Below are positions 8,104-60,435 of a DNA stretch of 60,435 bases, in pieces (the stretch's first letter is position 1; every line of letters begins with the position of its first letter). Under the pieces are notes generated by a model. That model saw only the letters and a list, made by a program, of their open reading frames with translations, ran no database searches and was not told where the DNA came from. Both the position numbers and the translations under genes were made by a program. The stretch comes from Crocinitomicaceae bacterium (GTDB lineage: Bacteria; Bacteroidota; Bacteroidia; Flavobacteriales_D; Crocinitomicaceae). The stretch lies in the NCBI GenBank assembly GCA_044375095.1, contig JBILNH010000001.1, forward strand, positions 1 to 60,435, written 5' to 3'.

Positions 8104-8221
8104 GTACAAAAATATAAAAGGTACCGTTGCAAATGGCAAGAAGTTGGATAAAAAAACGTATTTGTTTACAAGACAATAGGTTCAATAGAACAACAGATAC
8201 TTAACTGTTCTTGAAAAGCGA

Positions 8222-31016: not shown

Positions 31017-31110
31017 TCGGAAATAAACCGATTATTGTGTTTTAAAATAGCATTAAATGATAAAAAATGTGTAGATAATCGGAAAATATCCGATATTTGT
31101 GTTTTAAAAT
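31017..31110 (+). promoter_or_regulatory. Two 32-bp direct repeats (27/32 identical) in the abiEi upstream region; candidate AbiEi operator
   Basis: The copies are 31017-31048 (TCGGAAATAAACCGATTATTGTGTTTTAAAAT) and 31079-31110 (TCGGAAAATATCCGATATTTGTGTTTTAAAAT). Each has an internal TCGG(A)-N5-7-(T)CCGA palindrome, and the second copy ends in the abiEi ATG. Confidence 0.55.
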
Positions 31111-35654: not shown

Positions 35655-35715
35655 ATACATACGATTAGTAGTTCATTCTACAGACGATAAGAAATCGCAA
35701 ATGGTTGTTTGGTAA

Positions 35716-38655: not shown

Positions 38656-38689
38656 CAGGAAAGGCTAAAACAGACTTTAGCCTTTCCTG
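38656..38689 (-). terminator. Hairpin terminator downstream of the giant gene
   Basis: It has a 14-bp perfect stem (CAGGAAAGGCTAAA / TTTAGCCTTTCCTG) with a 6-nt loop, 58 nt after the stop. The U-tract is weak (CUAUAUUUGU). Confidence 0.55.
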
Positions 38690-38746: not shown

Positions 38747-41700
38747 TTAACGAAGCAAGGTGACGTGTCCCACTTTTTCTACTGCACCTTCGTTTTGGGA
38801 ACTGTTGAGGATGATTTTCCAGGTATATGTTCCGTCTTGAGCGAAGTTATCTTCACCGGTAAGGAACTCTTGAAGATTCATATACGTGCCATCCCATCCC
38901 ATTGTTGGATCAGTTGTGGAGAATACCACTTGACCCCAACGATTGAAAATGAGTAACTGGTAGTTACCTAAATCTACTCCAGATGTAATTACCGGAAGGA
39001 AAACATCATTTGTTCCATCGCCATTCGGAGTGAACGAGTTCGGCACATAGAAGATCAAATCTTCATACACAGTAACAGTTAAAAACGTGCTATCATAACA
39101 ACCGAATTCGTTGTAAGCAAATAGAGTGACCACATATGACTCAGGGACATCATCGTATTCGTGAATAGGGTTAGTGGACAAGCTAGAGCTTCCATCGCCG
39201 AAGTCCCACAAGTACGTGAACGCATCTATCGATTGATTCGTAAATTCAAACAACGGTTCAGATACAAGTGCTGAATCTGGACTGACAATGAAGTCTGCTA
39301 CAGGAATATCGTAAGCGCAAACAAAGTCTACCTGGGTTAACGTAGAGCTACAACCTGCCGCATTCGTCACGGTTAATGTGACATCATAGCAACCCGCTTC
39401 GTCGTATTGGTGATCGATAGCAAACGGTTGGTTCGATGTTGCACCGTCACCAAAATTCCATGTTAACGTCGTGTTTGGAGCGTTAATTATATCCGTAAAC
39501 ACTGTTTCAAATAGCACACACCCTTCAGTTGCAGATGCTGTAAATCCAACAGCAGGACTTTCTAGAATAGTTACTGGTTGAATTAAACTATCCACGCAGC
39601 CCGTCACTGAATTAGTGGCAGTTAACGATACATTGTAGGTGCCAAAAGCATCATACACATTGGTTGGATTTTGGTCCGTAGACGTTGAACCATCACCAAA
39701 ATTCCATACGTAAGTGTTTGTTCCAGGTGTAGTATTTTGGAATTGAATAGGATCCAAATCACAGAATGGTGCGTTAATAGGTGCAAATTGAACGTCTGGA
39801 AGCGCGTTGACAATCACTGGGATTGTAAATGGACCGGAAGGACAACCGAAATCACTCGTGATTAGCGCGATAGTGTAGGTTACAATTTGCGCATTATTCG
39901 TTGGATTGATTAACAAGTCATTGATCAAGTTCGATGCTTGAGGAACAAGAGTTTCTCCTGTAACGTTGACATTATTCGTTCCTTGCCAAGAGATAATTGA
40001 AGGAATATTACTTGTTAATGTTAGACCAACATTCTCATTTGAACAGATCTCAGTTCCACCTGACGTTAAGTTAGCCGTTGGATGAACGGTAATCGTAAAG
40101 TTTTGAGGAGTTCCTGTACATGTCACACCTAAATTCGTAAACGTCGGCGTAACAGAAAGATCCGCAATTACAGTTGTTGTCGAAGGATTGGTCGCAACAA
40201 ACGGAGCGATGTTTCCAGTACCCGTGCTTGTTAGGCCTATGTTCGGCAAGGAGTTCGTCCAGTTGTAAACTGTACCCGCTACATTGCCAGTGAAATTAAC
40301 TGGATTCGTTTGTGCGTTATTACACAAGGTAAGATCAAGTGGATCATTCACTGTAGGTGTTGGATTGACTGTAACCGTAAATGTTTGTGTTGTTCCTGTA
40401 CATGTTACACCCGCATTGGTGAATGAGGAGGTAACAGTAATGGTTGCCACTTGAGGTATGTTCGTGCCATTCACCGCAATGAATGATGGAATCGGTCCAT
40501 TTCCTGAAGCTCCTAATCCAATTGTGGTATTGGTGTTTGTCCAGCTGTAACTTGAATTATTTACTGAAGACGTAAAGTTCACCGCTTGTGTGCTTGATCC
40601 GTTACAAAGTACTTGATCAATAGGGTCAGTTGTTATTGGAGTTGGGTTAACTGTAATTGTAAAGATCTGACTAGCACCTGTACATGTTATATTATTCGTA
40701 TAGCTCGGGGTAATTGTAATTGTACTTACCTCAGGGTTTATTAACGTAGACGATGTAATGAAACTGTTGATATTGCCTTGCCCATTGGTTGCTAATCCAG
40801 TTAACGTGTTGCTGTTTGTCCAGGTATAAACTGTATTTGGAACATTGCCTGTAAACGCTACGTTGTTGGTCGCCGATCCACCACATACTACCTGATCCAC
40901 TGGATCGACTACGTTTGGTGTTGGATTAACGGTAATTGCAAAGTTTTGAGGGTTTCCTGAACAACTTGTCCCATTGAAATTCACGACTGGTACAACCGTA
41001 AAGTTCCCAGTGATCGGAACGATCCCTGAATTAGTCGCTACAAATGGTGAAATGGTACCAGATCCTGTAGCCGGAAGCCCGATGGCTGTATTGTTGTTCG
41101 TCCACGTAAATTGAGTGCCTGATATAGAACCGTTGAACAAGACGTTATTTGTTGTTGCATTGTTACAGTAAATACTATTAGCAACGGCATTTACTGTCGG
41201 AATTGGATTCACGGCAATAGTAAACACCTCAGGAGTACCTGTACATGTTGCCCCATTAAACGCAAAGCTTGGCGTAACTGTTATTGTTGCAGTCGAAATG
41301 GCAGTCGAATTGTTAACCGCTGTAAATGGTGGAATACTTCCTGTTCCGCTAGCTGCTAGTCCAATAGTTGTATTGTTATTTGTCCACTGATAACTTGCAC
41401 CTGGTGTATTTCCGCTAAACACAATTTGGCTGCTCAATCCATTTGCACAAAGTGTTATGTCAGGTACATTATTAATGACAGGTGAAGGATTGATAGAAAT
41501 GGAGAAGAGTTGATTTGAACCTGTACATGTCACTGCATTGTTTGTATAGCTCGCAGCAACTTGGAAGTTCCCTGAGTTCACCGCTGTAGAGGAATTAAGC
41601 CCAACAAATGCAGGAATATTTCCTTGTCCGCTTGTTCCTATTCCTATCGAACCATTCGAGTTTGTCCAACTGTATGTGGTATTCGAAACATTACTGCTAA

Positions 41701-44700
41701 AGTTAACCGCAAGTGAATTGGTGTTTGCACAGATCACTTGACTTTGTATGGCATTCACCACAGGAACAGGATTCACAGTAATACTAAATGATGCTGGAAT
41801 TCCCGGACAGCTCGCTCCTTGATTGGTGAAAACTGGGGTAACAATGACATTACCTGTTAACGGTCCGTTTGTATTGTTCACTGCATTGAATGAAATATCC
41901 CCACTTCCACTGCCTGCAAGACCAATTCCTGGTGTTGTATTGGTCCATGTGAAGTTCGTATTGAATGCATTTAGTGATGTAGTGAAATCGACAGCAACGG
42001 TGTTGTTTGCACAAACCGTTTGATTAAGAACCGGATCAACCGTCGGTGTCGGATTGATTACGACGGAAACAGACAGTGTAGAACCCGAACAACTTACGCC
42101 ATTCGAGCTATAAACAGGAGTAACAAGAAGTTGAGCATTAATTGGTGTATTTCCTGTATTTGATGCAAGGAAGTTTATGTCTCCTGTTCCACTTGCAGGA
42201 ATTCCAGTTGCTGTATTTGAATTGATCCAATTGTACGTAACAGCAGGGTTGTTATTCATGAATGTGCTGTTGAAATCAACGAGTGAAACCGTATTGTGAC
42301 AATACGTTAACGTTGGCATTGGATCAACAGTTGGTGTAGGGTTAACCTGATAAGTAAACGAAGTTGGTATACCCGAACACGTCAATGTACCTGCTACAAA
42401 AATAGGGGTAACAGTAACCAGACCATTTGATGGAAGATTCGTTCCGTTTACCGCAGTAAACGCTTGAATATTTCCATTGCCAATTGGTGATAATCCAATC
42501 GATGGCGTTGAATTCGTCCAGTTGAATTGCGTGCCCGTAACATTACTAACAAAGTTTACCGGAGTTGTTGTATTGCCATTACAAAGCACCTGATTCGCCA
42601 CAGGTAACACATCTGGTGTTGGATTCACAATAAACGTGAAGTTTGTTGAAGTACCAGGACATGTTACACCATTATTTGTATAGTTCGGAATTATAACAAC
42701 ATTCGATTGAATTGGCGACTGTGTCGGATTTTGAGCCACAAAGACAGGTATGTTTCCAGTTCCAAGGTTTTGCAGACCTATTGACGGATTCGAATTCGTC
42801 CAGTTGTAAATCGTTCCAGCAACAGGGCCACTCAAAAGTACTTGGTTGCTTGAACTGTTGTTACATACATTTTGATTGAGTACAGGGTTTACAATTGGAG
42901 TAGGGTTTACGTTAATTATAAAGTTTTGAGAAGTTCCAGTACAGGTTAATCCATTAAAGGTTAATGTTGGACTCACACTAATTGACGCATTTACAGGGCT
43001 AAATCCTTGATTTATTGCTGTGAAGCCAGGAATAGAACCTGTTCCGGTTGCTGCCAAGCCAATTGATTGCGTCGTATTTGCCCAATTATAGGCTGTTGCT
43101 GTTGAATTACTGCTAAATGGAATGAAAGGAGTTTGTAATCCGTTACAAACTGTTAAAGCAGGAACTGGATTCATCACAGGAGCCGGATTTACAGTTACCC
43201 AAATTGGGAATACAGGTGTCGAACAACCGTTAAATGTAGAAGTACCAATTACGTTGTAAACCAACTCTTGCGGAACAGCAGTTTGGTTAACCAACACATC
43301 GGAAATGGTTGATGAAGTAACTGCAGAAAGGCTTTCCCCTGTCACATTTACGTATTGCTGCGTTGCTAACCAATTGAATGTAACGGCTGAATTGGCGATT
43401 AAGTTCAAGTTAACCGGATTACCGCTACAAATAGTGATTGAATCTTGATTCAAAAGCGCAAGTGGCGGACGTACGGTCACAGCAATTGTCTGAGCACTTC
43501 CTACACAATTCCCATCGATTGATGTTGGTGTAATACTGTAAATAACAAGTTGATTTGTTGTAGTGTTATTTACGAGTACGTCGTTAATTACTCCACCTGT
43601 ATTTGTTGTTAAGGATTCACCGGTCACATTCGGATTATCTATGGTTGTAAACCAACTGTAAGTCGAAGGTACATTTGCGCCTAAAATGGCATTTACTGGA
43701 GCGCCACTACAAATTTCTAATGTACTCGGAATATTTAACTGTACATCTGGGATAACCTCAATGATAAAAGTAGAATCGGGACCAACACATCCTGCCAACG
43801 CCGAGATTGGAGTGACGTTGTAAACCACGAACTGTGGTTGCGATGTAGTATTTGTTAACGTATTCGATACTACTGCTGAACTTTGAATAATCGACACTTC
43901 ACCATTCACGTTTGGATTTGGAGTAGCAAACCAATTGAAGGTTGCAGGAATGTCACTCGATAAATTTACCGTAAATCCATCGCCATTACATATAGTCTGA
44001 TCGCTAATGGCATCTATAAGTGGGAGAGGATTTACTGTAACAGTAACATTTTGATTTACCCCGGTGCATCCATTGTTTGTTGGAGTTACGATGTAGTTAA
44101 TTGACTGAGGATTTAACGTCGAGTTAATCAGGTTATCATTTATGACATTGGTGTTTTGACTCAGTGTACTTTCACCAGTGACATTTGGATTATTTAGAGC
44201 CAACCAGTTAAAAGTAGAACCTTGAACATTCGTTGTCAAATTAAAGTTAAGCGGTGTTCCACTACAAACAGCAACAGTTGATGAGCTCGTCATTACTGGA
44301 ATTGGACGTACAGTCACGTTAACTGTCTGAGGCAATCCATTACAGCCATTTGCAGCAGGTGTAACAGTGTAAACTACCAGTTGATCAGTTGTTCCATTAT
44401 TGTTTAGAACATCTGTAATCGTCGCTGTGTTTTGTGGGAATAAACTTTCACCTGTAACAAGTAAATTATCAGCTCCAACCCAATTAAATGTCGTTCCTAT
44501 AACATTTGTTGTTAAACCGAAGTTTAACGGTAATCCACTACAAATGGAAAGAAGGTTAGCGCTTGTCATTGATGGCGTAGGACGAACGGTCGCAACTACG
44601 GTAACTGGTGACCCTATACAGCCATTAAATGTTGGCGTAACAGTGTAATTAATTTGTTGATCAATTGATGAGGTATTGAATAGCAAATCAGTTATTGTGT

Positions 44701-47700
44701 TTGTACTTTGAATAGAAGTGCTTTCACCGGAAACATTGTTATTTGGAGCGGCGATCCAAGTGAATGTTGTCCCAACAATATTTGCATTTAGTGGCACAGC
44801 AACAGCATTTCCGCTACAAATATTTGCTGTTGTATTACTTGTGATCGTTGGTGCTGGACTTACTGTGACTGTAACCGTTTGTTGCGCGCCATTACATCCA
44901 TTCAATGAAGGTGTTATGGTGTAAGTTACCACCTGGTTTACAAGTGTTGTATTTGTAAGCACATCATTGATGATCGATCCGGTCTGATTGCCTGTACTTA
45001 GACCGACAACATTGGCATTTGGTTGAGCTGCCCATTGGAAAGTAGACCCAACTAGGTTGGCATTTAAACTCAATGAGACAGGTTGACCACTGCAAATGTT
45101 TACGGTTGCCGTATTTGTCATTAGAGGTCTAGGTTTCACAACGACAGATAATGACTGAGGAACACCTGAACATCCGTTAATTGTTGGTGTAATGGTATAA
45201 ACTACTGTTTGATCTATTAAACTCGTGTTTTCCAGCACATCACCAATTGTTGATGAGTTTTGTATCGCGATTGTTTCACCTGTAACTGAACCGTTTGCCG
45301 CGGCACTCCATGTGAAAGATGCACCAGGAATATCTGCTAATAAGGTTAGATTCACTGACTCTCCGCTACAGATACTCAATGCGGATGAGCTTGTCATAGA
45401 AGGATTTGGTAAAACTGTTATAGATACGTTTTGTGTCGTTCCTGAACAAAGATTAAATGTTGGAGTAACAGCGTATAGTACAGTTTGACTTAAGAGTGTT
45501 GTATTTATCAAATAGTCATTGATGAGATTGGAGTTTTGATTGGACGTGCTTTCACCAGTAACAAATGGATTCGAGACAGCTGACCATACAAATGTTGTAT
45601 TGTTAATGTTCGAAGTCAGATTCAGGTTGACAAAATTGCCACTACAAATAGAATCAGTTGCGGCATTAGTCGTTGTTGGGTTTGGTTTGACAATTACACT
45701 GACCGTTTGTTGAGGTCCGTTACAACCGTTGGCATTAGGAACAATAGTATAAATGACTGTTTGGTTAACCAACGTGGAATTTGTCAGTACATCGCTGATT
45801 GGATTAATGACCTGGTTACTGGTACTTTCACCAGTCACATTAACATTATCAGTAGCTACCCAAGTAAACGATGAACCGTTTACAGATGACGTCAAGTTCA
45901 ATCCTACAGGATTTCCACTACAAATTGCCAAAGAATTGGAACTTGTCATTTGTGGAGTAGGGAAGACTGTAACATCGATAGTAACAGGATTTCCAGCACA
46001 TCCATTGAAGGATGGAGTTACAGTATAAACAACCGTTTGATTAACATTGGTAGTGTTAATGAGGTTGTCAGATAATAACGCGCCTGACTGATTCGTTGTA
46101 CTTTCTCCGGTTACAGATGGATTGGCCGCAGCGGACCATGTAAACGTCGTTCCTCCAATATCCGAAGTCAGTGGTAGACCAACAGTTGAATTACTACAAA
46201 TACTTACGACTGTATCATTTGTGATGCTTGGGTATGGCCCAACGTTCACCGTAATACTCTGTGCGTTACCCAAACACCCAAATGCTGTTGGAGTCACAGT
46301 GTAAATGACTTGTTGGTTTAACAAGGTTAAATTTGTCAATTGATCATTGATGACAGAAGTAATCTGAAGTGACGTAGTTTCACCATTTACGTTCACGTTA
46401 GTTGCTGCGTTCCATCCGAATTGTGTTCCAATTACTGTAGAAGTTAAATTCAGCGCTAATGTCTCCTCACTACATATAGTCAGTGTATTTTGACTCGTGA
46501 TTGATGGGATAGGTTTGACTACAACCTGTATTGTTTCAGATGGGCCCTGACAACCATTGAATGTTGGGGTTACTGTGTATGAAACCAATTGATTCACAGT
46601 TGAGTTGTTTACTAAAACATCTGTAATTGTAGTTGACGACTGAAGTGTGGTTGATTCACCAGTAACATTAGCTGATGCATTAGCTTGCCAAGTAAAAGTG
46701 GAACCTAAGATCGTTGAACTTAAATTTATGTTGGCACTTTCCTGGCTACAGATAGAATCCTGTAAAACACCATTGTAGGTAGGTTTAGGTTTTACCGTCA
46801 CACTAAGTTGGAATGGTAAACCAGGACATCCGTTGACTATTGGTGTAACAGTATATTGTACAACCTGATTTATGAGTGTAGTGTTTGTCAGTACATCATT
46901 CAGTGTTGATGAATTTTGAGCTATAGTGCTTTCGCCATTTACCGAAGTAGAAGATGCAGCAACCCAAGCAAACGTTGTTCCAGCGATAGTTGATGTAAAT
47001 GGTTGGTTTACATTATCTCCACTACATATAGTTACAGATGGTTGATTGGTAACTGAAGGGAGTGGTTGTACAGTCACGTTAACAGTTTGTGGTAAACCAT
47101 TACAACCGTTCGCATTAGGAGTGACCGTGTAACTAACAAGTTGATTGGTCAGCACATTATTAATGAGCGTATCAGCAATAATAGAGGTTGTTTGTGTCCC
47201 CAAACTTTCACCGAAAACATTTACTGCATCTGAAGCAATCCAGCTGAATGAAGTTCCAGTGACATTACTTGTTAAGGTTAGCCCGACACTATCTCCGCTG
47301 CATATATTCAGTGCAGATGCACTTGTAACAGAAGGAGACGGGAATAGCGTTACAACAATTGGCACCGGTGTTCCAGAACAACCATTAAAAATTGGCGTCA
47401 CTAAATAATTCACCGTTTGATTAGTTGAGCTGTTATTCAATAATAAATCATTGATCAGTATTCCATTTTGTGTTGTTGTACTTTCACCGGTTACATTCGT
47501 ATTATTCGATGCAATCCAATTGAATGTTGCACCGGTGATATTTGATGTTAGGTTAATATTTAGACTGTTCCCGCTACATATATCAAACGTATTTGCGCTT
47601 GTTACTTGAATGGTTGGTACAACTGTAACATTGAGTGTTTGACCGAGGCCATTACAACTGTTGGCAACAGGATTAATCAGGTAAGAAACAATCTGATTTG

Positions 47701-53700: not shown

Positions 53701-56700
53701 TCACTGTTACTGTTACAGTTTGTGTAGGTCCTGAGCAGCCATTCAATGAAGGGATTACATTGTAATTAACTACTTGATTGATTAGTGAAGTGTTTGTAAG
53801 TATGTCAGTGATTGAAGTAGTGTTTTGGGATGTAGTACTTTCACCACTTACGTTATTGTTTGCAGCTGCTGACCAGGTGAATGTCGTGTTTGTTATACTT
53901 GCACTCAATGGAATTGCTACCGCTGAACCGCTACAAATGGTTAGTGATGTGGCACTATTCATTACAGGGTTAGGTTGAACGATAACACTTACTTGTTGAT
54001 TATTACTAGAACAACCATTCGCAGTTGTTACCACGGAATAATTTACGGTTTGATTAACCAATCCCGGATTGATTAAAATATCGTTTATACTATTTGTGTT
54101 CTGTGTTGTTGTCGTCTCTCCTGTCGTAGAATTATTATCGGTCGCCGACCAACTAAATGCAGCACCTGAGACATTTGATGTCAAGTTAAGGTTTACAGCA
54201 GAGCCACTGCAAATGGTGTTAGTTAAATTACTTGTAAGCACAGGAATAGGAGCAACCGTAACAGTTAACTGCTGTGCAGCACCAAAACATCCATTGAAGG
54301 ACGGTGTTATTGAGTAAACGACCTGCTGTGTTGTCGTTGTTGTATTCGTCAACGCATCAGTAATAATAGCTGAATTCTGAATGTTTGTACTTTCCCCAGT
54401 TACTCCTGCGTTTGACTGCGCTGACCAGCTAAAGGTAGTACCACTAATTGTAGCATTCAGGTTTATAGATAGAGAAGAACCACTGCATATAGTTAATGGA
54501 GAAAGTCCAGTTAATGAAGGCGTTGGTTTCACGGTTACTGTAACCACTTGACTAGGACCAGAGCAGCCATTGACAATTGGTGTAACCGTATACAGAACGA
54601 GCTGTTCAGTTGTTTGATTTGTAGATAACACATCGTTAATCGCAGCACTTGTTTGTAACGATGTACTTTCACCGGTCACCGTGTTTGTTGCGGCGGCTTG
54701 CCAAGTGAAACTTGTACCTGGTATTGAGGAACTCAGGTTTAGTCCGACTGCATTTCCACTACAAATTGTTACAGTTGCGGAACTGTTTATTACTGGAGAT
54801 GGATTCACAGTTACTTGAACCGTTTGGGGTGGTCCGTTACAACCATTGTAGGATGGATTTATCGTATAATTAACGATTTGCGCAATTGAGGTTGTATTGA
54901 CTAAAGAATCATTAATAAATGAACTGGTTTGAGGACTTGAATTTTCACCTTGAACGTTTGCGTTAGACGTCGCTAACCATTGAAATGAGGTGCCAACAAT
55001 AGATGAGGTAAGCGATAAATTTACAAGTTGTCCGCTACACAATGTCAAGGAGTTTGCACTCGTTACTACAGGTGTTGGTTTTACAAGTACATTTATTAAT
55101 TGTGAACTTCCCGAACATCCATTTGCACTTGGGGTAACAGTATACGTGACGGTTTGATCGCTTGTAGAGTTATTAATTAAAACATTATTTATGGTTGAAG
55201 TTGTCTGTACAGTTGTGCTTTCTCCAGTAACATCCGTATTATTTTGAGCTACCCAAGAATAGGTTACGCCGCTAACGTTGCTCGTTAATTGCAAGTTTAC
55301 TGGTTGACCACTACATATAGTAAGGTTGGTTAGATTAGATAAGGTTGGATTTGGATTAACAACTACGGTTACTGTTTGGGTCGTACCCGCACAACCGTTG
55401 GCTGTTGGCGTAATATTGTAAATTACGGTCTGAGAAGCTGTAGTTAAATTCACCAATACATCGCTAATTGACGAGGAAGATTGCAGGGTTGAACTTTCTC
55501 CGTTCACATTAACGGTTGAATTAGCGATCCAACTAAAAGTGCTTCCTGAAACTGATGATGTCAAATTCAAGTTGACTTGCGCACCTGAACATATGGTGAC
55601 ATTGGGTAAACTCGTTACAGAAGGAGTCGGGTTAACATTTACAGTGATAGTAAGGGGTGAACTCGCGCATCCATTGAATGACGAAGAATAAGTGTAAACA
55701 ACTTGTTGAACTGTTGACGTATTATTAATTAAAATGTCGTTAACCGTTGATGAATTTTGTGTGGCATTCGATTCTCCAGTAATGCTTGTATTACTGGCAG
55801 CTGACCAGCTTATAGTTGCTCCAGTAATGTTGGTAATCAGAGGCACGTTTAACGATTGACCACTACAAATTGTAAGTGGATTAACCGGACTGATCTGAGG
55901 TCGAGGTTTAACCGTTATGGTTAGCGTTTGAGTTGCACCTGTACATCCATTAAAGGTAGGAGTGACTGTATAGACAACTTGTTGATCGGAAAGCGTAAGG
56001 TTGTTGAGAACATCTGAAATAATTCCTGTGTTTTGAGCAGTTGTACTTTCACCGGACACGTCTGCAGTTGCAGCGGCTACCCAATTGAATGTTGTTCCTG
56101 AGATATTTGATGTTAATGCGAAATTGAGTGCGTCCCCACTACAAATGGTTAATGCAGAAGCACTAGTAATCGTTGGGCTAGAATTTACAGTTACAGCCAC
56201 AACCTGGGATGTACCAGTACATTGATTAAAGGTTGGTATAACAGTATAATTGACAACCTGACTGCTAGCAGTAGTGTTTATTAATTGATCATTAATTGTG
56301 GCAGATACTTGCGCTGTAAGGCTTTCTCCAGTCACGTTAGAGTTGGATGCTGCGGACCAACTGAAACTTGTTCCACTGATGTTTGCGTTCAATGGTATTG
56401 ATAGTGAACCCCCGCTACAGATGGATGAGGTGGAAGAGATAAGTAAACTTGGTCGTGGTTTCACAACCACATTCAATTGTTGCGATTGTCCTGGACAGCC
56501 ATTAAACGTAGGTATAATTGAATAGACAACCGTTTGATCTGCTGTCGTTGAATTGATCAGTACGTCGCTAATGCTTGAAGTGCTCTGATTGGTTGTTGTT
56601 TCACCTCCAACAGATGCATTATTCGCTGCGGACCATGTAAAATTTGAACCGTTTAATGAAGAAGTTAGGTTCAGGTTAACGGCCTCACCACTACAAATAG

Positions 56701-59700
56701 TCAATTGTGACGGACTTGTAACAGTTGGTAATGGATTAACTGTAACATTAACAGTTTGCGGCAAACCACTACACCCATTGACAGAAGGCTGAATGGAATA
56801 ACTTACAACACTGCTGTTATTACTAGTATTCGTAAGTAAATCGTTAATTGTAGAAGATGATGTTGCTGTTGTTGTTTCTCCACCAACTGTTGCATTGGTT
56901 GCTGCTGACCAGGTAAAGTTTGTTCCTGTAACATCAGCAGTTAATGTCAATCCAACTGTATTTCCGCTACACAATGAAAGTGCCGAAGCACTTGTCATAT
57001 TTGGATTCGGTTTAACTGTCACCGTGAATTGTTGACTAAGCCCACTACAACTATTGAATATAGGTGTTACAGTATAGGTAACTGTTTGGTCAATAGGCGT
57101 AGTATTGATAAGAACATCATTGATTAATCCGGTAGTTTGATTGGATGTACTCTCGCCCGTAACACTAGAATTTGAAGTTGCAACCCAAGAAAAAGTGGAT
57201 CCGGTAACATTCGCATTCAGAATGGTATTGACATTACCTCCACTACAAAATGTTATATTTTGCAGTCCAACAACACTTGGTATTGGTTTAACAGTTACAT
57301 TCAATATAAATGGAGATCCTGAACAGCCGTTTAAGGTTGGTGTTATCGTGTATTGAACTGTTTCATTAGCAAATGAATTGTTTATCAAGACATCTGTAAT
57401 TGTTCCACCCGTTTGGGAGGTTGTACTTTCACCTGTAACAACTGCATTATTAGTCGCAATCCATAAAAATGTTGTACCTGTAACAGTTGAGGTTAACGTT
57501 TGATTTACCGCGGAATTACTGCAAATAGAAAGTGTATTTGGACCAGTTATCGATGGGGTAGGCAGAACAGTTATGGTAACTTGCTGAACAGGGCCAGGAC
57601 AACCATTAAATGTTGGTGTAACATTATATACTACTTGCTGAACAGCTGTTGAAGTATTAACAAGTGTGTTTGTTATAGCATTACTATTCTGTGTTGTTGT
57701 TGATTCTCCTGTTACATTTGCATTGGCAACAGCTATCCATGAAAAAGTTGTACCGGTTATTGAACTCGTTAAACTTAAGTTTGGTGAACTTCCACTACAA
57801 ATTGAAGCAGTTGCATTCGATGTCATAGTTGGGGTTGGTTTAACAACTATGGTAATCGTTTGCACCGTACCTTGACACCCATTTGCAGTAGGTGTAACAG
57901 AATATGTTACTACTTGATTTACGCCACTTGAATTTATGAGTGTATTATTAATTAAAGAGGTAGTTTGAGCAGTTGTACTTTCGCCAGTAACGTTTGTGTT
58001 ATCAACTGCGGACCAAGAATAACTCACACCAGAGACATTTGAACTAAGTGCAATTGCTAGGGTTGTTCCACTACATATTGTATCAATCGATGCGCTCGTA
58101 AGCAGTGGACTTGGCTGAACAGAAACCAACACATTAATTGTGTTTCCAGGGCATCCCAATAGCGTTGGAGTTACGGTGTAATTTACCTGTTGAGTTGAAT
58201 TACTCGTGTTGATCAATACATCATTGATAAGTGAACTGTTAACAGGTGTTGTACTTTCTCCTGTTACATTGGCATTCGCAAGAGCCGACCAACTAAATTG
58301 TGTTCCGGTAATCGGTCCAGATAGAGAAATAGACAGCGTTTGTCCGCTACAAATCGGAGTGCTTACCGGTGGTGTAACTGACGGTGGAGGAACTACAGTA
58401 ATTGCTAACTGTTGAGGCGTTCCTGTACATCCATTCACTGTAGGCGTAATGGTATAATTTACTACTTGGAAAATACTTGTTGTGTTAACAAGCGTATTAT
58501 TAATTATTGAGGCTGTTTGAGGAGTTATGCTTTCACCATTCACAAAGGCGTTAGGAGCAGCCTGCCAACTGAAACTCGAACCAGGAACACTGGCTGAAAG
58601 CGTGAAATTGACTGCTGTATTGTTACAGATTGTATCAGACGTCGCACTAGTCATTACCGGACGAGGCTTTACAGTAATGGTAACCGTCTGAGGATCACCT
58701 AAACAACCATTTAGATTTGGAGTTATTGTGTAGGTTACCAGTTGGTTGGTGGTTGACGTATTAACAAGTTGGTCAGTGATTGTTCCAACGGTTTGTGCTG
58801 TAGTACTCTCTCCATTTACCAAAGGATTATCTGTCGCTGACCAACTAAATGACGATCCGTTTAGCGAGGAAGACAGAACCAGATTCACAGCATCACCACT
58901 ACATATCGTGGCAGCATTTGAACTAACCATTTGAGGGTTAGGCTGAACGGTAACATTGACGATTTGCTGTGTTCCAACACATGAATTTAGCGTTGGTGTT
59001 ACGGTGTAGGTAACAATTGTTGACTGATTTCCAGTTAATGTCAATACATCAGGTATTGTTGCTGTTGATTGCGGTGTCGTCGTTTCCCCAGTAACGTTTG
59101 TATTTGGCGATCCAACCCATGAAAAAGTCGTCCCACTTAAGTTAGACGTGAGTGCCAAGTTTACAGCCGCTCCGCTACAAATTGTTAATGTCGCAGGGCT
59201 AGTAAGTATCGGGTTAGGTCGAACGGTAATAGAAATAGTCTGGTTTGAACTACAACCATTTAGTGTTGAAGAAACTGTGTAAACTACAATTTGATCCAAG
59301 AGGGTATTGTTCGTTAACACATCATTTATAATTCCGGTACTTTGAATGCTGGTAGTTTCTCCTCCAACATTATTATTCGCAGCTGCAGACCAACTAAAAG
59401 TTGTTCCGGGAATATTCGCTGTTAAATTAATTGCAAGGGTTGCTCCGCTACAAATCGTTTGGTTAGTAGTGTTGGTTAATACGGGATTAGGTCGAACAGT
59501 AACCGTTACAAGTTGCGGAGTGCCAAGACAGCCATTCGCAGTTGGAGTAACAGTATACGTAACAACTTGATTTGTCGCAGTAGAGTTCAATAAAATATCC
59601 GTAATTGTAGCACCTGTTTGTGCAACGAGGCTTTCTCCGGCTACATTTAAACTGTCCGCCGCAACCCAACTAAACGTTGATCCTGCCACTGTAGAAGATA

Positions 59701-60435
59701 GCGCCAATCCAACAGGCGAACCGCTACAAATGGATGCAGTCGAACTACTTGCCATTGCTGGAATAGGCTTTACAGTAACTTGTAAGGTCTGCGGAGTTCC
59801 CTGACAACCATTAATGAATGGAGTAATAGTATAATTTACTGTTTGATTACTTGCCGTAGGATTGGAAAGAATATCAGTAATTACTGAACTGGTTTGTAAT
59901 GAGGTCGATTCGCCTGTAACTTGAGTACTATTTGCTGCAATCCAAGTGAAGTTCGCACCAGCAACATTGGAGACTAAAGCAAGATTGACAGCGCTTCCAC
60001 TACAAATAGTTAACGCATTAACACTCGTGATAATTGGCAACGGATTAACCGTAACAGTTATTGTAAAAGGTTGACCAGGACAGCCACCAACAGTTGGGGT
60101 AACAGTATAGGTTACCACTTGGGCAGTTGAAGATGTATTTGTTAATGTTTGTGAGATGGTCGCGACTCCAGTTGTTTGTGACGACTCTCCTGTAATGTTT
60201 GTGTTATCAATAACAGTCCAAGTGTATGTCGTTCCAGTAGGAACGACATTTCCAGTTCCACTGAATGAAGCAAGGTTTGAATATGAAAATGATCCACCTG
60301 AACAAATGGTACTGGCTTGATTTGCAATTATTGGTGCAGTGTTGACGTTAGCAATAAAAGTTTGAGAGTTCCCAACACATCCAAAAGGAGAGGTTGGAGT
60401 AATTGTGTAGTTAACTTGTTGAACAGTATTTGTGA
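38747..60435 (-). CDS. Giant repeat-rich cell-surface protein with a T9SS type B C-terminal domain (5'-truncated by the window edge; more than 7,229 codons present)
   Basis: It is one uninterrupted ORF. The track start at 60118 is an internal GTG (Val) codon. Hand translation of 60119-60435 in the same frame has no stop and continues the repeat pattern. Domain sub-features are listed below. Confidence 0.9.
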   Translation of the reverse strand, partial: TNTVQQVNYTITPTSPFGCVGNSQTFIANVNTAPIIANQASTICSGGSFSYSNLASFSGTGNVVPTGTTYTWTVIDNTNITGESSQTTGVATISQTLTNTSSTAQVVTYTVTPTVGGCPGQPFTITVTVNPLPIITSVNALTICSGSAVNLALVSNVAGANFTWIAANSTQVTGESTSLQTSSVITDILSNPTASNQTVNYTITPFINGCQGTPQTLQVTVKPIPAMASSSTASICSGSPVGLALSSTVAGSTFSWVAADSLNVAGESLVAQTGATITDILLNSTATNQVVTYTVTPTANGCLGTPQLVTVTVRPNPVLTNTTNQTICSGATLAINLTANIPGTTFSWSAAANNNVGGETTSIQSTGIINDVLTNNTLLDQIVVYTVSSTLNGCSSNQTISITVRPNPILTSPATLTICSGAAVNLALTSNLSGTTFSWVGSPNTNVTGETTTPQSTATIPDVLTLTGNQSTIVTYTVTPTLNSCVGTQQIVNVTVQPNPQMVSSNAATICSGDAVNLVLSSSLNGSSFSWSATDNPLVNGESTTAQTVGTITDQLVNTSTTNQLVTYTITPNLNGCLGDPQTVTITVKPRPVMTSATSDTICNNTAVNFTLSASVPGSSFSWQAAPNAFVNGESITPQTASIINNTLVNTTSIFQVVNYTITPTVNGCTGTPQQLAITVVPPPSVTPPVSTPICSGQTLSISLSGPITGTQFSWSALANANVTGESTTPVNSSLINDVLINTSNSTQQVNYTVTPTLLGCPGNTINVLVSVQPSPLLTSASIDTICSGTTLAIALSSNVSGVSYSWSAVDNTNVTGESTTAQTTSLINNTLINSSGVNQVVTYSVTPTANGCQGTVQTITIVVKPTPTMTSNATASICSGSSPNLSLTSSITGTTFSWIAVANANVTGESTTTQNSNAITNTLVNTSTAVQQVVYNVTPTFNGCPGPVQQVTITVLPTPSITGPNTLSICSNSAVNQTLTSTVTGTTFLWIATNNAVVTGESTTSQTGGTITDVLINNSFANETVQYTITPTLNGCSGSPFILNVTVKPIPSVVGLQNITFCSGGNVNTILNANVTGSTFSWVATSNSSVTGESTSNQTTGLINDVLINTTPIDQTVTYTVTPIFNSCSGLSQQFTVTVKPNPNMTSASALSLCSGNTVGLTLTADVTGTNFTWSAATNATVGGETTTATSSSTINDLLTNTSNNSSVVSYSIQPSVNGCSGLPQTVNVTVNPLPTVTSPSQLTICSGEAVNLNLTSSLNGSNFTWSAANNASVGGETTTNQSTSSISDVLINSTTADQTVVYSIIPTFNGCPGQSQQLNVVVKPRPSLLISSTSSICSGGSLSIPLNANISGTSFSWSAASNSNVTGESLTAQVSATINDQLINTTASSQVVNYTVIPTFNQCTGTSQVVAVTVNSSPTITSASALTICSGDALNFALTSNISGTTFNWVAAATADVSGESTTAQNTGIISDVLNNLTLSDQQVVYTVTPTFNGCTGATQTLTITVKPRPQISPVNPLTICSGQSLNVPLITNITGATISWSAASNTSITGESNATQNSSTVNDILINNTSTVQQVVYTYSSSFNGCASSPLTITVNVNPTPSVTSLPNVTICSGAQVNLNLTSSVSGSTFSWIANSTVNVNGESSTLQSSSSISDVLVNLTTASQTVIYNITPTANGCAGTTQTVTVVVNPNPTLSNLTNLTICSGQPVNLQLTSNVSGVTYSWVAQNNTDVTGESTTVQTTSTINNVLINNSTSDQTVTYTVTPSANGCSGSSQLINVLVKPTPVVTSANSLTLCSGQLVNLSLTSSIVGTSFQWLATSNANVQGENSSPQTSSFINDSLVNTTSIAQIVNYTINPSYNGCNGPPQTVQVTVNPSPVINSSATVTICSGNAVGLNLSSSIPGTSFTWQAAATNTVTGESTSLQTSAAINDVLSTNQTTEQLVLYTVTPIVNGCSGPSQVVTVTVKPTPSLTGLSPLTICSGSSLSINLNATISGTTFSWSAQSNAGVTGESTNIQNSAIITDALTNTTTTTQQVVYSITPSFNGCFGAAQQLTVTVAPIPVLTSNLTNTICSGSAVNLNLTSNVSGAAFSWSATDNNSTTGETTTTQNTNSINDILINPGLVNQTVNYSVVTTANGCSSNNQQVSVIVQPNPVMNSATSLTICSGSAVAIPLSASITNTTFTWSAAANNNVSGESTTSQNTTSITDILTNTSLINQVVNYNVIPSLNGCSGPTQTVTVTVKPRPVLTAPVALTICSGDTVELALTSTITGSTYSWLAADNINATGESTSLQSTSTISDIIINTSLLPQTVAYSATPAFNGCTGSAVTINVTVNPNPQMTSSAAVTICSGNSVSLNLGSTIIGSSFSWVATQTSNVSGESATPQSTATINDVLINNLTTDQTVFYTVTPTVAGCSGNPQQVTVTVKPTPSITSASTQSICSGTTLSFPLISSISGTNFSWIATTNNNVTGESSVSLQNGAFITDNLVNTTNVDQVVTYTVTPTFNGCVGATQIVTITVKPNPVLTSSTTANICSGSALAINLTSNVTGTVFSWVAADNVEVSGESTTPQTTTAIANVLTNNSLTDQQVIYTVSPTANGCSGTAQTITVTVRPAPIVNSTNTAVICSGTAVNLAFTSSISGTTFSWSAAANSFVNGESTTAQTGNTLTDVLTNTSGSSQDVIYTVIPTLNGCSGPSQLVTVTVKPTPVMTSAASLALCSGSNVNLSLQSSISATSFSWVATDNPNITGETSTAVSSGLINDVLVNTASTNQTVLYSVTPTLNGCNGVTQTVSVMVYPTPSITSANNLTLCSGNVIGLSLSSTVAGTTYTWSAADNTNVTGESTSPQSTSTISDLVVNTSGADQIINYLITPVANGCFGNAQALTVVVKPKPVMNSVANSTICSGANVNINLNASIPGTTFSWVASPNANVTGESISSQNSSTITDVLINTTNIVQTVTYTVTPLFNGCSGTPQTVVITVNPGPSMTSLSNLTICSGSSIGLNLSSNVTSSSFTWSATENLNVSGESTTNQFTATIGDILINTTGSNEQVTYTITPAANGCIGGNQTVTVTVQPNPSVSSASNVTICSGSGVNLPLTSSLPGTTFSWVATATISVNGESTTQQNTSIISDVLINTTTSNQTVTYSVIPTLNGCPGTAQLVNVLVKPNPVMTSGTTVSICSGSNVGLNLSASISGSTFTWIAQDNANVTGENSVTAQTSGIISDQLINTTNTAQTVLYTVTPTFNSCSGTPQTVSVTVNPNPSLTSSSALTICSNSPVNLAISSNVSGTAFSWIASNNANINGESLTNQNTSSINDVLINTTTTAQVVNYTITPTGPGGCVGTTQNLIVTVNPLPVVTNLSTVTICSNVAVNLNLTSNIPGTTFSWVATPNASVSGENTVLQNTSLINDVLVNTTTSPQTVTYTITPILNGCAGLPQTITVSVDPIPSMTSISSLSICSGSNINLALTSNVSGSAYSWVATDNPNVTGESLSAVSTSTITNTLVNTTNVNQNVLYTVTPSGNGCNGNVQTVTVTVFPSPVLSSPSNLSICSGEAVGQSLASTVAGTTFNWSAASNANVGGETTALQTTSTITDVLTNTTTSDQTVVYTVTPSANNCLGTGQLVTVIVKPRPTMLSNNSAAICSGSSVNLALNASLTNSTFTWIAANNPLVSGESLTLQTSGLISDILTSSSTVNQTVNYVVTPSFNGCTGSAQSVAVNIKPNPAITSVNSTQVCSNVALNFPFASNVSGTTYSWVANDNVNITGESTSPQSTSSLTDILVNTTLFEQDVTYTVIPSAAGCTGAGQTLVVTVTPIPTINSLLTATICSGESVDLPISSTIPGTTLTWVAQNNGNVTGESLTTQTGNLISDQLINTSSTNQIVAYSLLSTFNGCSSPVAVAQVTVKPTPTVTNATTLSICSGENVNVALTSNVVGTTFNWSASDNTSVSGESITVQNVSSITDVLINTSLTNQNVTYTVQPTADGCVGPNQSITVTVKPLPSITPIAPVTICSEETLSIPLTANINGTTFNWSAQNNLNVTGESITTQNGATITDALTNNTSIAQQIDYTVTPLLNGCSGTNQNVFVTINPLPVVTNLSSFTICSGENFTTNLLSSVTGSTFQWSAQNNPQVNGESTTAQNSSSISEVLINTSNVNQQVIYTITPTANNCAGNNFTITVTVKPSPVITSGTSLTICSGNNVNYSITSNVAGTTYTWSAVDNGSVTGEATTTQSTSSINDVLINTTLSNQIVSYLINPVANSCNGLGQTLNVTVVPTIQVTSANTFDICSGNSLNINLTSNITGATFNWIASNNTNVTGESTTTQNGILINDLLLNNSSTNQTVNYLVTPIFNGCSGTPVPIVVTLFPSPSVTSASALNICSGDSVGLTLTSNVTGTSFSWIASDAVNVFGESLGTQTTSIIADTLINNVLTNQLVSYTVTPNANGCNGLPQTVNVTVQPLPSVTNQPSVTICSGDNVNQPFTSTIAGTTFAWVAASSTSVNGESTIAQNSSTLNDVLTNTTLINQVVQYTVTPIVNGCPGLPFQLSVTVKPKPTYNGVLQDSICSQESANINLSSTILGSTFTWQANASANVTGESTTLQSSTTITDVLVNNSTVNQLVSYTVTPTFNGCQGPSETIQVVVKPIPSITSQNTLTICSEETLALNLTSTVIGTQFGWNAATNVNVNGETTSLQITSVINDQLTNLTLLNQQVIYTVTPTAFGCLGNAQSITVNVGPYPSITNDTVVSICSNSTVGLPLTSDIGGTTFTWSAAANPSVTGESTTNQSGALLSDNLINTTNVNQTVVYTVTPSFNGCAGNPVTIDVTVFPTPQMTSSNSLAICSGNPVGLNLTSSVNGSSFTWVATDNVNVTGESTSNQVINPISDVLTNSTLVNQTVIYTIVPNANGCNGPQQTVSVIVKPNPTTTNAATDSICSGNFVNLNLTSNINNTTFVWSAVSNPFVTGESTSNQNSNLINDYLINTTLLSQTVLYAVTPTFNLCSGTTQNVSITVLPNPSMTSSSALSICSGESVNLTLLADIPGASFTWSAAANGSVTGETIAIQNSSTIGDVLENTSLIDQTVVYTITPTINGCSGVPQSLSVVVKPRPLMTNTATVNICSGQPVSLSLNANLVGSTFQWAAQPNANVVGLSTGNQTGSIINDVLTNTTLVNQVVTYTITPSLNGCNGAQQTVTVTVSPAPTITSNTTANICSGNAVAVPLNANIVGTTFTWIAAPNNNVSGESTSIQSTNTITDLLFNTSSIDQQINYTVTPTFNGCIGSPVTVVATVRPTPSMTSANLLSICSGLPLNFGLTTNVIGTTFNWVGADNLLVTGESLFPQNTATITDVLNNNGTTDQLVVYTVTPAANGCNGLPQTVNVTVRPIPVMTSSSTVAVCSGTPLNFNLTTNVQGSTFNWLALNNPNVTGESTLSQNTNVINDNLINSTLNPQSINYIVTPTNNGCTGVNQNVTVTVNPLPLIDAISDQTICNGDGFTVNLSSDIPATFNWFATPNPNVNGEVSIIQSSAVVSNTLTNTTSQPQFVVYNVTPISALAGCVGPDSTFIIEVIPDVQLNIPSTLEICSGAPVNAILGANVPSTYSWFTTIDNPNVTGESLTTNTGGVINDVLVNNTTTNQLVIYSITPTSIDGNCVGSAQTIAVTVRPPLALLNQDSITICSGNPVNLNLIANSAVTFNWLATQQYVNVTGESLSAVTSSTISDVLVNQTAVPQELVYNVIGTSTFNGCSTPVFPIWVTVNPAPVMNPVPALTVCNGLQTPFIPFSSNSTATAYNWANTTQSIGLAATGTGSIPGFTAINQGFSPVNASISVSPTLTFNGLTCTGTSQNFIINVNPTPIVNPVLNQNVCNNSSSNQVLLSGPVAGTIYNWTNSNPSIGLQNLGTGNIPVFVAQNPTQSPIQSNVVIIPNYTNNGVTCPGTSTNFTFIVNPTPDVLPVANQVLCNGNTTTPVNFVSNVTGTQFNWTNSTPSIGLSPIGNGNIQAFTAVNGTNLPSNGLVTVTPIFVAGTLTCSGIPTSFTYQVNPTPTVDPMPTLTYCHNTVSLVDFNSTFMNNNPAVTYNWINSNTATGIPASGTGDINFLASNTGNTPINAQLLVTPVYSSNGVSCSGSTLSVSVVINPTPTVDPVLNQTVCANNTVAVDFTTSLNAFNTNFTWTNTTPGIGLAGSGSGDISFNAVNNTNGPLTGNVIVTPVFTNQGASCPGIPASFSITVNPVPVVNAIQSQVICANTNSLAVNFSSNVSNTTYSWTNSNGSIGIGTSGQGNIPAFVGLNSSTAVNSGNFQVAASYTNNAVTCTGSNQLFSISINPSPVINNVPDITLCANGLSSQIVFSGNTPGASYQWTNNNTTIGLAASGTGSIPPFTAVNNSTAISTATITVTPSFAFNGATCTGTPEVFTIAVNPIPTVNAVANSIYCNNATTNNVLFNGSISGTQFTWTNNNTAIGLPATGSGTISPFVATNSGIVPITGNFTVVPVVNFNGTSCSGNPQNFAITVNPTPNVVDPVDQVVCGGSATNNVAFTGNVPNTVYTWTNSNTLTGLATNGQGNINSFITSSTLINPEVSTITITPSYTNNITCTGASQIFTITVNPTPITTDPIDQVLCNGSSTQAVNFTSSVNNSSYSWTNTNTTIGLGASGNGPIPSFIAVNGTNIPQVATITVTSSFTNAGVTCTGTTQTFTVTVNPTPTVNDPLDLTLCNNAQTNPVNFTGNVAGTVYNWTNSLPNIGLTSTGTGNIAPFVATNPSTTTVIADLSVTPTFTNLGVTCTGTPQNFTITVHPTANLTSGGTEICSNENVGLTLTSNIPSIISWQGTNNVNVTGETLVPQASNLINDLLINPTNNAQIVTYTIALITSDFGCPSGPFTIPVIVNALPDVQFAPINAPFCDLDPIQFQNTTPGTNTYVWNFGDGSTSTDQNPTNVYDAFGTYNVSLTATNSVTGCVDSLIQPVTILESPAVGFTASATEGCVLFETVFTDIINAPNTTLTWNFGDGATSNQPFAIDHQYDEAGCYDVTLTVTNAAGCSSTLTQVDFVCAYDIPVADFIVSPDSALVSEPLFEFTNQSIDAFTYLWDFGDGSSSLSTNPIHEYDDVPESYVVTLFAYNEFGCYDSTFLTVTVYEDLIFYVPNSFTPNGDGTNDVFLPVITSGVDLGNYQLLIFNRWGQVVFSTTDPTMGWDGTYMNLQEFLTGEDNFAQDGTYTWKIILNSSQNEGAVEKVGHVTLLR
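38750..39061 (-). other. T9SS type B sorting domain (gliding motility-associated C-terminal domain, CHU_C/SprB-like)
   Basis: LIFYVPNSFTPNGDGTNDVFLPV...LLIFNRWGQVVFST...GWDGTY...DGTYTWKI...GHVTLLR matches the TIGR04131-type pattern. Confidence 0.85.
39062..39799 (-). other. Three canonical PKD domains
   Basis: The three W(N/D)FGDG motifs are YVWNFGDGSTS, LTWNFGDGATS and YLWDFGDGSSS, each followed by Y..G.Y.V.L. Confidence 0.85.
39800..40072 (-). repeat. Single terminal type-A-like module
   Basis: NLTSGGTEICSNENVGLTLTSNIPSIISWQGTNNVNVTGETLVPQ...IVTYTIALITSDFGCPSG. Confidence 0.7.
40073..43177 (-). repeat. Type B module array: 11 tandem ~94-aa repeats
   Basis: The consensus is ..(V/L)C.N.......F.(S/G)N..GT.(Y/F).WTN(S/N)N..IGL...G.G.I..F.A.N......(V/I)TP.....G(V/A)(T/S)C.G....F.I.VNPTP. 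I counted 11 units in the translation. Confidence 0.8.
43178..60435 (-). repeat. Type A module array: about 62 tandem ~92-aa repeats (~276-nt period)
   Basis: The consensus is P.P..TS....TICSG..VNL.LTS...GT.F(S/T)W.A..N.NVTGES(T/L)..Q....I.D.L.N.....Q.V.YTVTP..NGC.G..Q...VTV.P. ICSG codons recur every 272-278 nt (e.g. ~60000, 59725, 59447, 59172, 58897). Confidence 0.85.

Follow-up and report, generated by a model that had tools for sequence, protein, structure and literature searches.

What kind of protein is encoded by an open reading frame (ORF) that fills the last 21.7 kb of a bacterial contig and runs off its end before a start codon is reached? This question is raised by contig JBILNH010000001.1 (assembly GCA_044375095.1) of a Crocinitomicaceae bacterium, all 60,435 nucleotides of which were analysed and are referred to here as the window; since the window is the entire contig, the giant gene, which lies on the minus strand, leaves it at the 5' end of the gene. 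A first-pass annotation made from the letters of the DNA had read the product as a giant surface protein that is exported via a type IX secretion system (T9SS), carries a type-B sorting domain and consists of modules expected to be Ig-like. Family matches and structure predictions corroborate this reading; the giant protein is a new and unusually large member of the known class of PKD_5/type-B proteins, and not a new kind of system. With a probability of roughly 0.72, we consider it to be a T9SS-exported surface fibre of about 7,920 residues that is built from Ig-like domains and serves as an adhesin or spacer, with static, PorP-like anchoring as the favoured mode of attachment. Giant type-B substrates of the T9SS are the least understood surface structures of the Bacteroidota, and only SprB and GhpA have been studied so far.

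The giant reading frame and its modules

In the ORF listing, the gene occupies positions 38747..60118 of the minus strand (7,123 aa) and starts with a GTG codon. Translation of the frame 38747-60433, which also provides the residue numbers used here for the window, yields 7,228 codons with the terminal stop as the sole stop codon, and its first residues (TNTVQQVNYTITPTSPFGCVGNSQ; TNTVQQVNYTITPTSPFGC) match those read in the first-pass annotation. As the frame is free of stops upstream of position 60118, the GTG found there must be internal, with the N-terminus outside the contig; the earlier description of a single minus-strand ORF that continues past the window therefore holds. The visible part of the protein has a mass of 742 kDa, an isoelectric point of 4.05 and a net charge of -225, and contains only 42 lysine and arginine residues in total. 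Threonine (17%), serine (12.5%), asparagine (11.6%) and valine (10.5%) together make up 52% of its residues.

A hidden Markov model (HMM) built from 18 module copies tiles the protein without gaps and reveals 63 complete type-I modules and a partial one, 11 type-II modules, three PKD domains and the type-B sorting domain (Table 1). The type-I unit is Pfam family PF19406 (PKD_5, 'PKD-like domain'), to which all type-I modules match above the gathering score: 711.8 bits were obtained over 12 stretches of residues 1-1000, 3,020.4 bits over 46 stretches of residues 1001-5229 (4,229 aa), 356 bits over six stretches nearer to the C-terminus, and 88.9 bits over a single stretch for the last type-I module. 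The module had been regarded as uncharacterised; it is in fact catalogued, and related proteins number in the thousands in homologue and profile searches. A literature search on PF19406/PKD_5 retrieved nothing relevant in the way of experimental work on any PKD_5 protein or on giant PKD-like T9SS proteins. The period of about 92 aa, the richness in T, S, N and V, and the two cysteines per module were all read correctly at the outset: each of the two cysteines is present in 63 of the 63 complete type-I modules, as are a tryptophan, a glycine and a tyrosine, and a glutamate is found in 62 of them. The supposedly invariant N(V/I)TGES core has to be given up, however, as it occurs in its exact form in only 19 of the 63 modules; within it, only the glycine (63/63) and the glutamate (62/63) are invariant or nearly so. 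The mean pairwise identity of the type-I modules is 47%, with a maximum of 64%.

The same repeat unit is found in other PF19406 proteins of the Bacteroidota, which are annotated as 'PKD-like domain-containing protein' or 'gliding motility-associated C-terminal domain-containing protein', and in the giant protein, as in its database homologues, PKD_5 co-occurs with PF19081 (Ig_7), PKD_4 and CHU_C. What distinguishes the giant from these proteins is the exceptionally high number of PKD_5 copies, 65 in the full-length protein, and the embedded block of 11 type-II modules that the Pfam model scarcely detects. Hence, the expectation of one repeating module type is correct in so far as type I dominates, but it misses the type-II modules and the three PKD domains.

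The consensus of the type-II modules reads NPTPxV..C....F......YxWTNxxxxIGLxxxGxGxIxxFxAxN........VTP.....C.G. A single type-II copy has no Pfam or NCBIfam match at E<=10, and the 11 copies jointly reach 40.6 bits on PKD_5 over seven stretches. Judged by the alignment of their profiles with hhalign (98.7% probability, E=1.6e-16), in which both cysteines and the tryptophan take equivalent positions, type II is homologous to type I. When the type-II profile was searched against 1.84 billion representative proteins, 4,531 matches were found at E<=1e-3 and 1,579 at E<=1e-30; some of the proteins bearing such modules are giants themselves (up to 6,808 aa), and up to 62 copies are present in one protein. 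Type II thus looks like an under-modelled subfamily of PKD_5 that merits an HMM of its own.

The C-terminal segment of about 100 residues was rightly assigned to the type-B sorting domains, since it matches TIGR04131 with 42.5 bits (cut-off 35) and CHU_C (PF13585) with 56.6 bits (cut-off 27; residues 7130-7224); no match to the type-A C-terminal domain (CTD; TIGR04183) was found in the giant protein. The repeats were equally rightly set apart from the classical SprB repeat, as PF13573 is absent from the entire 7,228 aa at thresholds of E<=0.01 or E<=0.001. Among proteins of the PDB, the PKD region finds a sequence match in the PKD domains of the collagenase ColH.

Structures were predicted with AlphaFold2 from alignments of the protein's own di-modules and compared with the PDB by means of Foldseek. 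Both module types are predicted with high confidence to form tandem, all-beta domains with an Ig-like beta-sandwich fold (type I: predicted local distance difference test score [pLDDT] 96.4, predicted template modelling score [pTM] 0.83; type II: pLDDT 95.5, pTM 0.83), and the conserved cysteines may engage in disulfides. With confident structural models for both subfamilies, the locus provides a clean natural example of 76 PKD_5-type modules within one gene. The best Foldseek matches of the type-I di-module are fragments of grappling hook protein A (GhpA) from Aureispira sp. CCB-QB1 (9fly, 9flv, 9flu, 9fls, 9flp, 9flw and 9g8b; E 6e-7 to 4e-5, 20-26% identity), with an eighth GhpA fragment at E 1.5e-4; the identity across all eight fragments is 16-26%, and generic Ig, cadherin and FN3 tandems follow below them. 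For the type-II di-module, the matches comprise cadherin and protocadherin tandems, SraP and GhpA. In addition, the type-I profile matches full-length GhpA (5,898 aa) with E=2.7e-84, in dozens of stretches that are weak by themselves (10-30 bits each). GhpA, a T9SS substrate that assembles into heptamers, has a stem of 52 Ig-like repeats, disulfides between its domains and probable O-glycans; its gene is followed by ghpB and ghpC, encoding homologues of PorP and PorE, respectively, and cryo-EM structures of its related Ig-like repeats are available (PDB 9flp, 9fls, 9flu-9fly, 9g8b; bioRxiv 10.1101/2024.01.29.577165). That the structure of the module had not been described therefore holds only in part: structures have been solved for distant homologues, though for no PKD_5 domain proper. 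Both proteins are giant T9SS substrates with tens of tandem, cysteine-containing Ig-like domains, and GhpA is the best match of the giant's modules in the PDB by sequence and by fold; the similarity is a distant one.

A further match of the type-I di-module, weak (E=0.022) and yet true to the motif, is to residues 979-1106 of the cyanobacterial protein All3314 from Anabaena (PDB 7b5h, chain AA), in which ..CS.e.. and ..GC.. are kept at equal positions. This match suggests that PKD_5-like domains may occur outside the Bacteroidota.

Table 1. The giant gene, its constituent modules and its downstream flank, in window coordinates.
Feature	Position	Strand	Remarks
Giant ORF, 5'-truncated by the contig end	38747..60435	-	7,228 codons + stop; frame 38747-60433
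Partial type-I (PKD_5) module, C-terminal 25 residues (aa 1-25)	60359..60433	-	start beyond the contig; corresponds to aa 694-718 of the giant protein of relative L129
62 tandem type-I modules, aa 27-5742	43208..60355	-	period 92 aa; PF19406 PKD_5
11 type-II modules, aa 5749-6783	40085..43189	-	~94 aa; divergent PKD_5 subfamily
One further type-I (PKD_5) module, aa 6784-6870	39824..40084	-	PF19406, 88.9 bits
Three classical PKD domains, ~aa 6877-7125	39059..39805	-	PF18911 / PF00801
T9SS type-B C-terminal sorting domain, aa 7130-7228	38750..39046	-	CHU_C PF13585 / TIGR04131
Stop codon of the giant gene	38747-38749	-	
Terminator-like hairpin	38656..38689	-	15-bp stem and T-rich tail, 58 nt past the giant stop, before gcvP
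gcvP (glycine dehydrogenase)	35770..38622	-	downstream neighbour, housekeeping; not PorP/SprF

The missing 5' end, the authenticity of the gene and its alleles

Related loci (L001-L009 and L127-L129; L127 is GCA_964577845.1), among them contigs from JGI and ENA metagenomes, supplied the part of the gene that lies beyond the contig and whose recovery had been proposed in the first-pass annotation. A homologue search with the first 308 residues returned fragments of at most 540 aa with 32-49% identity, none of them near-identical and reaching upstream (this ceiling suggests that match length is capped relative to the query), and a metagenome scan with residues 1-124 gave no match above 90%. The same scan yielded L009, a collinear orthologue (69% identical) with a true start. 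Module i of the window corresponds to module i+1 of L009, with 55-84% identity versus at most 63% for non-orthologous modules; from this one-for-one collinearity, it follows that the array is old and position-specific and has not been amplified recently. In species-representative genome contigs, the N-terminus of L009 finds 25-60% identity over the best segments, most of them short, and no close orthologue.

The PorE-like protein of L009 led, via clusters formed at 90% identity, to member P0331 on the L007 scaffold and thence to L129; L129 and L007 are parts of one 50,540-bp ENA scaffold, which represents the closest, collinear relative. Residues 698-3329 of L129 align with window residues 5-2636 at 90.3% identity, and L007 aligns with the C-terminal 2,742 aa of the window at 96.1% identity, both without a single gap. 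Hence, the window lacks 693 N-terminal residues, and the full protein comprises about 7,920 aa; in the scaffold of the relative, the gene spans 23,737 nt. The giant protein of L129 starts with MKLRIAQFSILVTFLLLLFEGYAQQ (longer stretch: MKLRIAQFSILVTFLLLLFEGYAQQCNV) and that of L009 with MIASQRILLLKLSLLFLIVSKFSIAQ, each containing a putative signal peptide as judged by eye. Apart from this putative signal peptide, the missing part carries, in the relatives, two Ig-like domains, several PKD-like domains and one PKD_5 module.

An ORF of this size invites the suspicion of an assembly artefact, caused by the collapse or expansion of repeats, or of a pseudogene; indeed, all public assemblies with the same or a near-identical gcvP (L001-L008) break within the giant gene, and two ENA scaffolds carry it in two parts (5,195 + 2,684 aa and 899 + 1,665 aa). 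These split points (L007, ~1,720-1,730; L008, ~2,667-2,680) are gaps of ten N in the scaffolds that shift the frame, however, and not stop codons. An open frame of 7,228 codons cannot arise by chance in DNA with 41% GC, and the coding sequence does not contain a single exact repeat of a 20-mer. In independent samples, assembly L001 is 99.95% identical at the nucleotide level over 9,876 nt, and L006 is 99.25% identical over 9.9 kb. Furthermore, the gene is under purifying selection: the ratio of non-synonymous to synonymous divergence (dN/dS) is 0.07 in the comparison with L007 (C-terminal 2,742 codons; dS 0.28) and 0.098 in that with L129 (N-terminal 2,632 codons), stretches over which the relative is collinear throughout; in gcvP of the same relative, dN/dS is 0.034 and dS is 0.27, similar to that of the C-terminal part of the giant gene. 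Pseudogene and assembly-collapse explanations are thus effectively refuted and can be set aside for practical purposes. An antisense ORF within the giant gene (50838-51215, plus strand, 125 aa) was dismissed for want of support, since the long stretch without stops is its probable cause.

The locus is hypervariable, in that a lineage equally close to that of the window carries a completely different allele. In L003, L004 and L005, gcvP is 93.5% identical to that of the window at the nucleotide level (L007, 94.1%), the MreB protein is 100% identical and the flanks are syntenic, yet the giant gene is only 34-43% identical and consists mainly of type-II modules (at least 23 copies). Alignment of the window with L003 (9,600-10,000) shows 84-99% nucleotide identity through gcvP and the intergenic region, about 60% at ~38,810-38,960, in the last ~200 nt of the ORF, and 30-58% within the repeats; this sharp boundary near the 3' end of the giant gene (window 38,750-39,000) looks recombination-like. 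The CTD of the giant is 70% identical to that of the otherwise unrelated L003 allele, and such conservation between alleles fits a fixed partner. L127 and L128 represent further, non-collinear alleles of 5,307 and 5,940 aa. Compared with L129, dS is about 2 (saturated) at window residues 5-924 (57,660-60,420) and 0.15-0.68 further in, and it amounts to 0.18-0.36 in the C-terminal part, which points to a recombination mosaic with a distal part of deeper origin; dN/dS against L129 and L007 is 0.04-0.11 throughout. Because exact repeats of 20 nt or more are lacking, the assembly breaks at the giant gene are probably due to this allelic heterogeneity, and the locus bears on the systematic fragmentation of such genes in metagenome-assembled genomes. 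The replacement of alleles between genomes that are ~94% identical in gcvP at the nucleotide level shows this surface locus of a freshwater lineage to be hypervariable and has a bearing on the strain-level ecology of the lineage.

Operon context, anchoring and rival readings

In L129, the giant gene is the last of four genes separated by intergenic gaps of 4, 1 and 11 nt; it is preceded by genes for a small type-B cargo (1,042 aa; PKD_4, PKD_5, SprB repeats, CHU_C), a PorP/SprF-family protein (302 aa) and a peptidoglycan-binding, PorE-like protein of the OmpA family (741 aa). The order cargo-PorP-PorE-giant is also found in L009, L127 and L128; the upstream operon spans positions 329-6,597 in L129, 25-4,288 in L009, and 5,900-12,226 in L127 and L128. 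The PorP-like protein of L009 scores 250 bits on TIGR03519, and the L009 orthologue of the OmpA-family protein is 61% identical, with CHU_0125-type OmpA and PorE as the best NCBIfam matches. In all four loci, the PorP-like protein ends with ...RKNAYLSPRYF; it possesses a single internal cysteine and is devoid of a Cys-X-Cys tail. The small cargo, about 1,040 aa long in the relatives, combines SprB repeats with one type-I and one type-II module.

These features matter for the mode of attachment. SprF possesses an invariant, periplasmic, C-terminal Cys-X-Cys motif that forms a disulfide link to GldK and is required for the linkage to the gliding track (PMC12635249). In Flavobacterium johnsoniae, PorE-like genes accompany those of static type-B substrates but not those of mobile ones (PMC12618676, PMC9143113), and the cognate porP-like gene is normally located directly downstream of that of the cargo (PMC12618676). 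Static anchoring of the giant protein is favoured over its propulsion because its gene closes the tight cargo-PorP-PorE operon of the closest relative, because the adjoining PorP-like protein lacks the Cys-X-Cys tail, and because a PorE-like companion marks static substrates in F. johnsoniae. Movement by the gliding machinery, as considered in the first-pass annotation, accordingly finds no support at the locus. Static type-B substrates of F. johnsoniae (e.g., Fjoh_3952/3951/3950; PMC12618676) likewise have an operon comprising a type-B cargo, a PorP/SprF-like protein and a PorE-like OmpA; they differ from the locus studied here in that the giant gene comes after the pair (cargo1-porP-porE-giant), with a CTD that is only ~22% identical to that of cargo1.

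We propose that the giant protein would be exported by the Sec system, would then pass the outer membrane through the T9SS by virtue of its type-B CTD, and would stay attached to the outside of the cell in the form of a long, acidic and unbranched fibre. Such a fibre would consist of about 85 Ig-like beta-sandwich domains: some six Ig- or PKD-like domains that form the tip at the distal N-terminal end, 65 PKD_5 domains, 11 divergent PKD_5 domains and three PKD domains. With GhpA (240 nm for 5,898 aa) taken as the yardstick, a length of about 300 nm would be expected. The protein most likely acts as an adhesin or spacer fibre that makes contacts via its distal N-terminal end, and the anchoring would be static, through a complex containing the PorP-like and possibly also the PorE-like protein.

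Several observations weigh against this proposal. No PorP/SprF-like gene is present directly downstream of the giant gene, where the terminator-like hairpin and gcvP are found; in the relatives, the PorP/PorE pair sits downstream of the small cargo, which places the PorP gene two genes upstream of the giant. Given the canonical order cargo-porP-porE, the simplest assumption is that the pair belongs to the small cargo encoded upstream. It may serve that cargo only, the two CTDs being just ~22% identical, and the giant protein would then be an 'orphan' type-B substrate whose shuttle is encoded elsewhere. Moreover, no ligand-binding domain was identified in the giant protein, and the O-glycosylation motif of the Bacteroidota, D(S/T)(A/I/L/V/M/T), is not enriched in it (15 observed versus 22.6 expected). 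It should also be noted that the N-terminus and the operon are seen in the relatives and not in the window contig itself. The locus is a candidate for testing which partner an 'orphan' giant cargo relies on: the neighbouring PorP/PorE proteins, in which case it is static, or a carrier of the SprF type, in which case it is mobile.

The second of these options corresponds to a mobile gliding adhesin of the SprB type: a SprF-like carrier, joined to GldK by a disulfide, would hold the protein and be propelled with it along the helical track of the gliding machinery. Some Crocinitomicaceae glide, and the giant protein shares with SprB of F. johnsoniae the type-B CTD (TIGR04131/CHU_C), a comparable size (SprB, 6,497 aa) and a predicted filamentous location on the surface. 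Orphan type-B substrates are known from F. johnsoniae, where they are routed to the gliding machinery (PMC12618676), so that a shuttle gene just downstream is a frequent but not an indispensable feature of type-B cargo. By gene order, the giant may be such an orphan, with a different carrier possibly encoded elsewhere in the genome. Nevertheless, we regard a mobile adhesin as unlikely, given that the giant is devoid of SprB repeats and is followed by gcvP and not by sprF, that the only PorP-like protein of the locus lacks the twin-cysteine tail of SprF and is accompanied by a PorE-like protein, that no sprC/sprD-like genes are found upstream in the relatives, and that gld, spr and por machinery genes are absent from the genes of the window. 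The likeness to GhpA raises another prospect, namely a 'grappling hook' in which several protomers would lie side by side to form a rigid, hollow stem used to capture prey for contact-dependent killing by a type VI secretion system (T6SS), that is, ixotrophy. The two proteins are similar in size, the CTD is a T9SS signal, PorP- and PorE-like genes occur at both loci, and the two Ig domains at the N-terminus of the L009 orthologue resemble the stem repeats of GhpA with 30-36 bits per repeat. We nonetheless judge a grappling hook to be very unlikely. The resemblance at 20-26% identity is one of the Ig superfamily, common to thousands of proteins, and the repeats have a period of 92 aa in the giant versus ~83 aa in the hook protein; no match to GhpA was obtained with the CTD and PKD region of the giant; and the PorP/PorE pair lies upstream of the giant gene instead of downstream, probably cognate to another cargo. 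The N-terminal ~690 aa lack a significant match to the hook region: when the hook module (GhpA residues 26-1402) was compared with the N-terminal 640 aa of the L009 orthologue, residues 26-1170 gave only stretches of negative score, and the matches of these 640 aa are confined to the stem and neck repeats of GhpA (residues 1174 onward). T6SS genes, too, are absent from the genes of the window.

Hypervariability, finally, might speak for a protective coat without adhesive function: a dense, highly acidic brush that hides the outer membrane from phages or grazers, its sequence being swapped by recombination under negative frequency-dependent selection. The low isoelectric point and the strong negative charge, the differently built allele of an equally close lineage with its sharp break near the end of the gene, the non-collinear alleles within the same operon, and the mosaic of dS values all speak for it. 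Yet the same variability is equally expected of an adhesin or a phage receptor, and the dN/dS values give no sign of positive selection within the allele class; the chances of such a coat are, in our view, remote. A bolder combination of these ideas is that abundant freshwater Flavobacteriales keep, within a conserved PorP/PorE operon, a hypervariable cassette for a fibre that is swapped by recombination, with the present gene as one of its alleles, and that the fibre might form a GhpA-like, multimeric and rigid appendage. We hold this combination to be unlikely; if it were true, the planktonic Bacteroidota of lakes would bear 'harpoons' or recognition fibres that differ from strain to strain, and a turnover of these fibres driven by interactions with phages, grazers or prey would explain the constant breaks in metagenome assemblies. 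We thus retain the statically anchored adhesin or spacer fibre as the preferred reading.

Other genes of the contig

The remainder of the window consists of housekeeping genes, among them mreB, mreC, pbp2, rodA, purH, icd and aminotransferase genes, together with genes for three proteins with a type-A CTD and an AbiEii toxin. The three type-A proteins (Por_Secre_tail) are further T9SS substrates and are encoded at 8,283-10,109 (minus strand), 22,315-23,880 (plus strand) and 33,237-35,660 (minus strand). One of them contains a Cu2_monoox_C domain and another the domains DUF7619, DUF11 and SdrD_B; the latter protein is only 83% identical between lineages whose GcvP proteins are 98% identical.

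On the plus strand at 31,097-32,601, the gene for the AbiEii nucleotidyltransferase toxin (type IV toxin-antitoxin system/abortive infection) follows an overlapping ORF of 216 aa. This ORF has no Pfam match and is probably an AbiEi-like antitoxin; the pair is kept in all related contigs. The mreB gene (28,376-29,401, plus strand) is located ~20 kb away from, and on the opposite strand to, the cluster formed by mreC, a 171-aa ORF (possibly mreD), pbp2 and rodA (3,493-8,139, minus strand).

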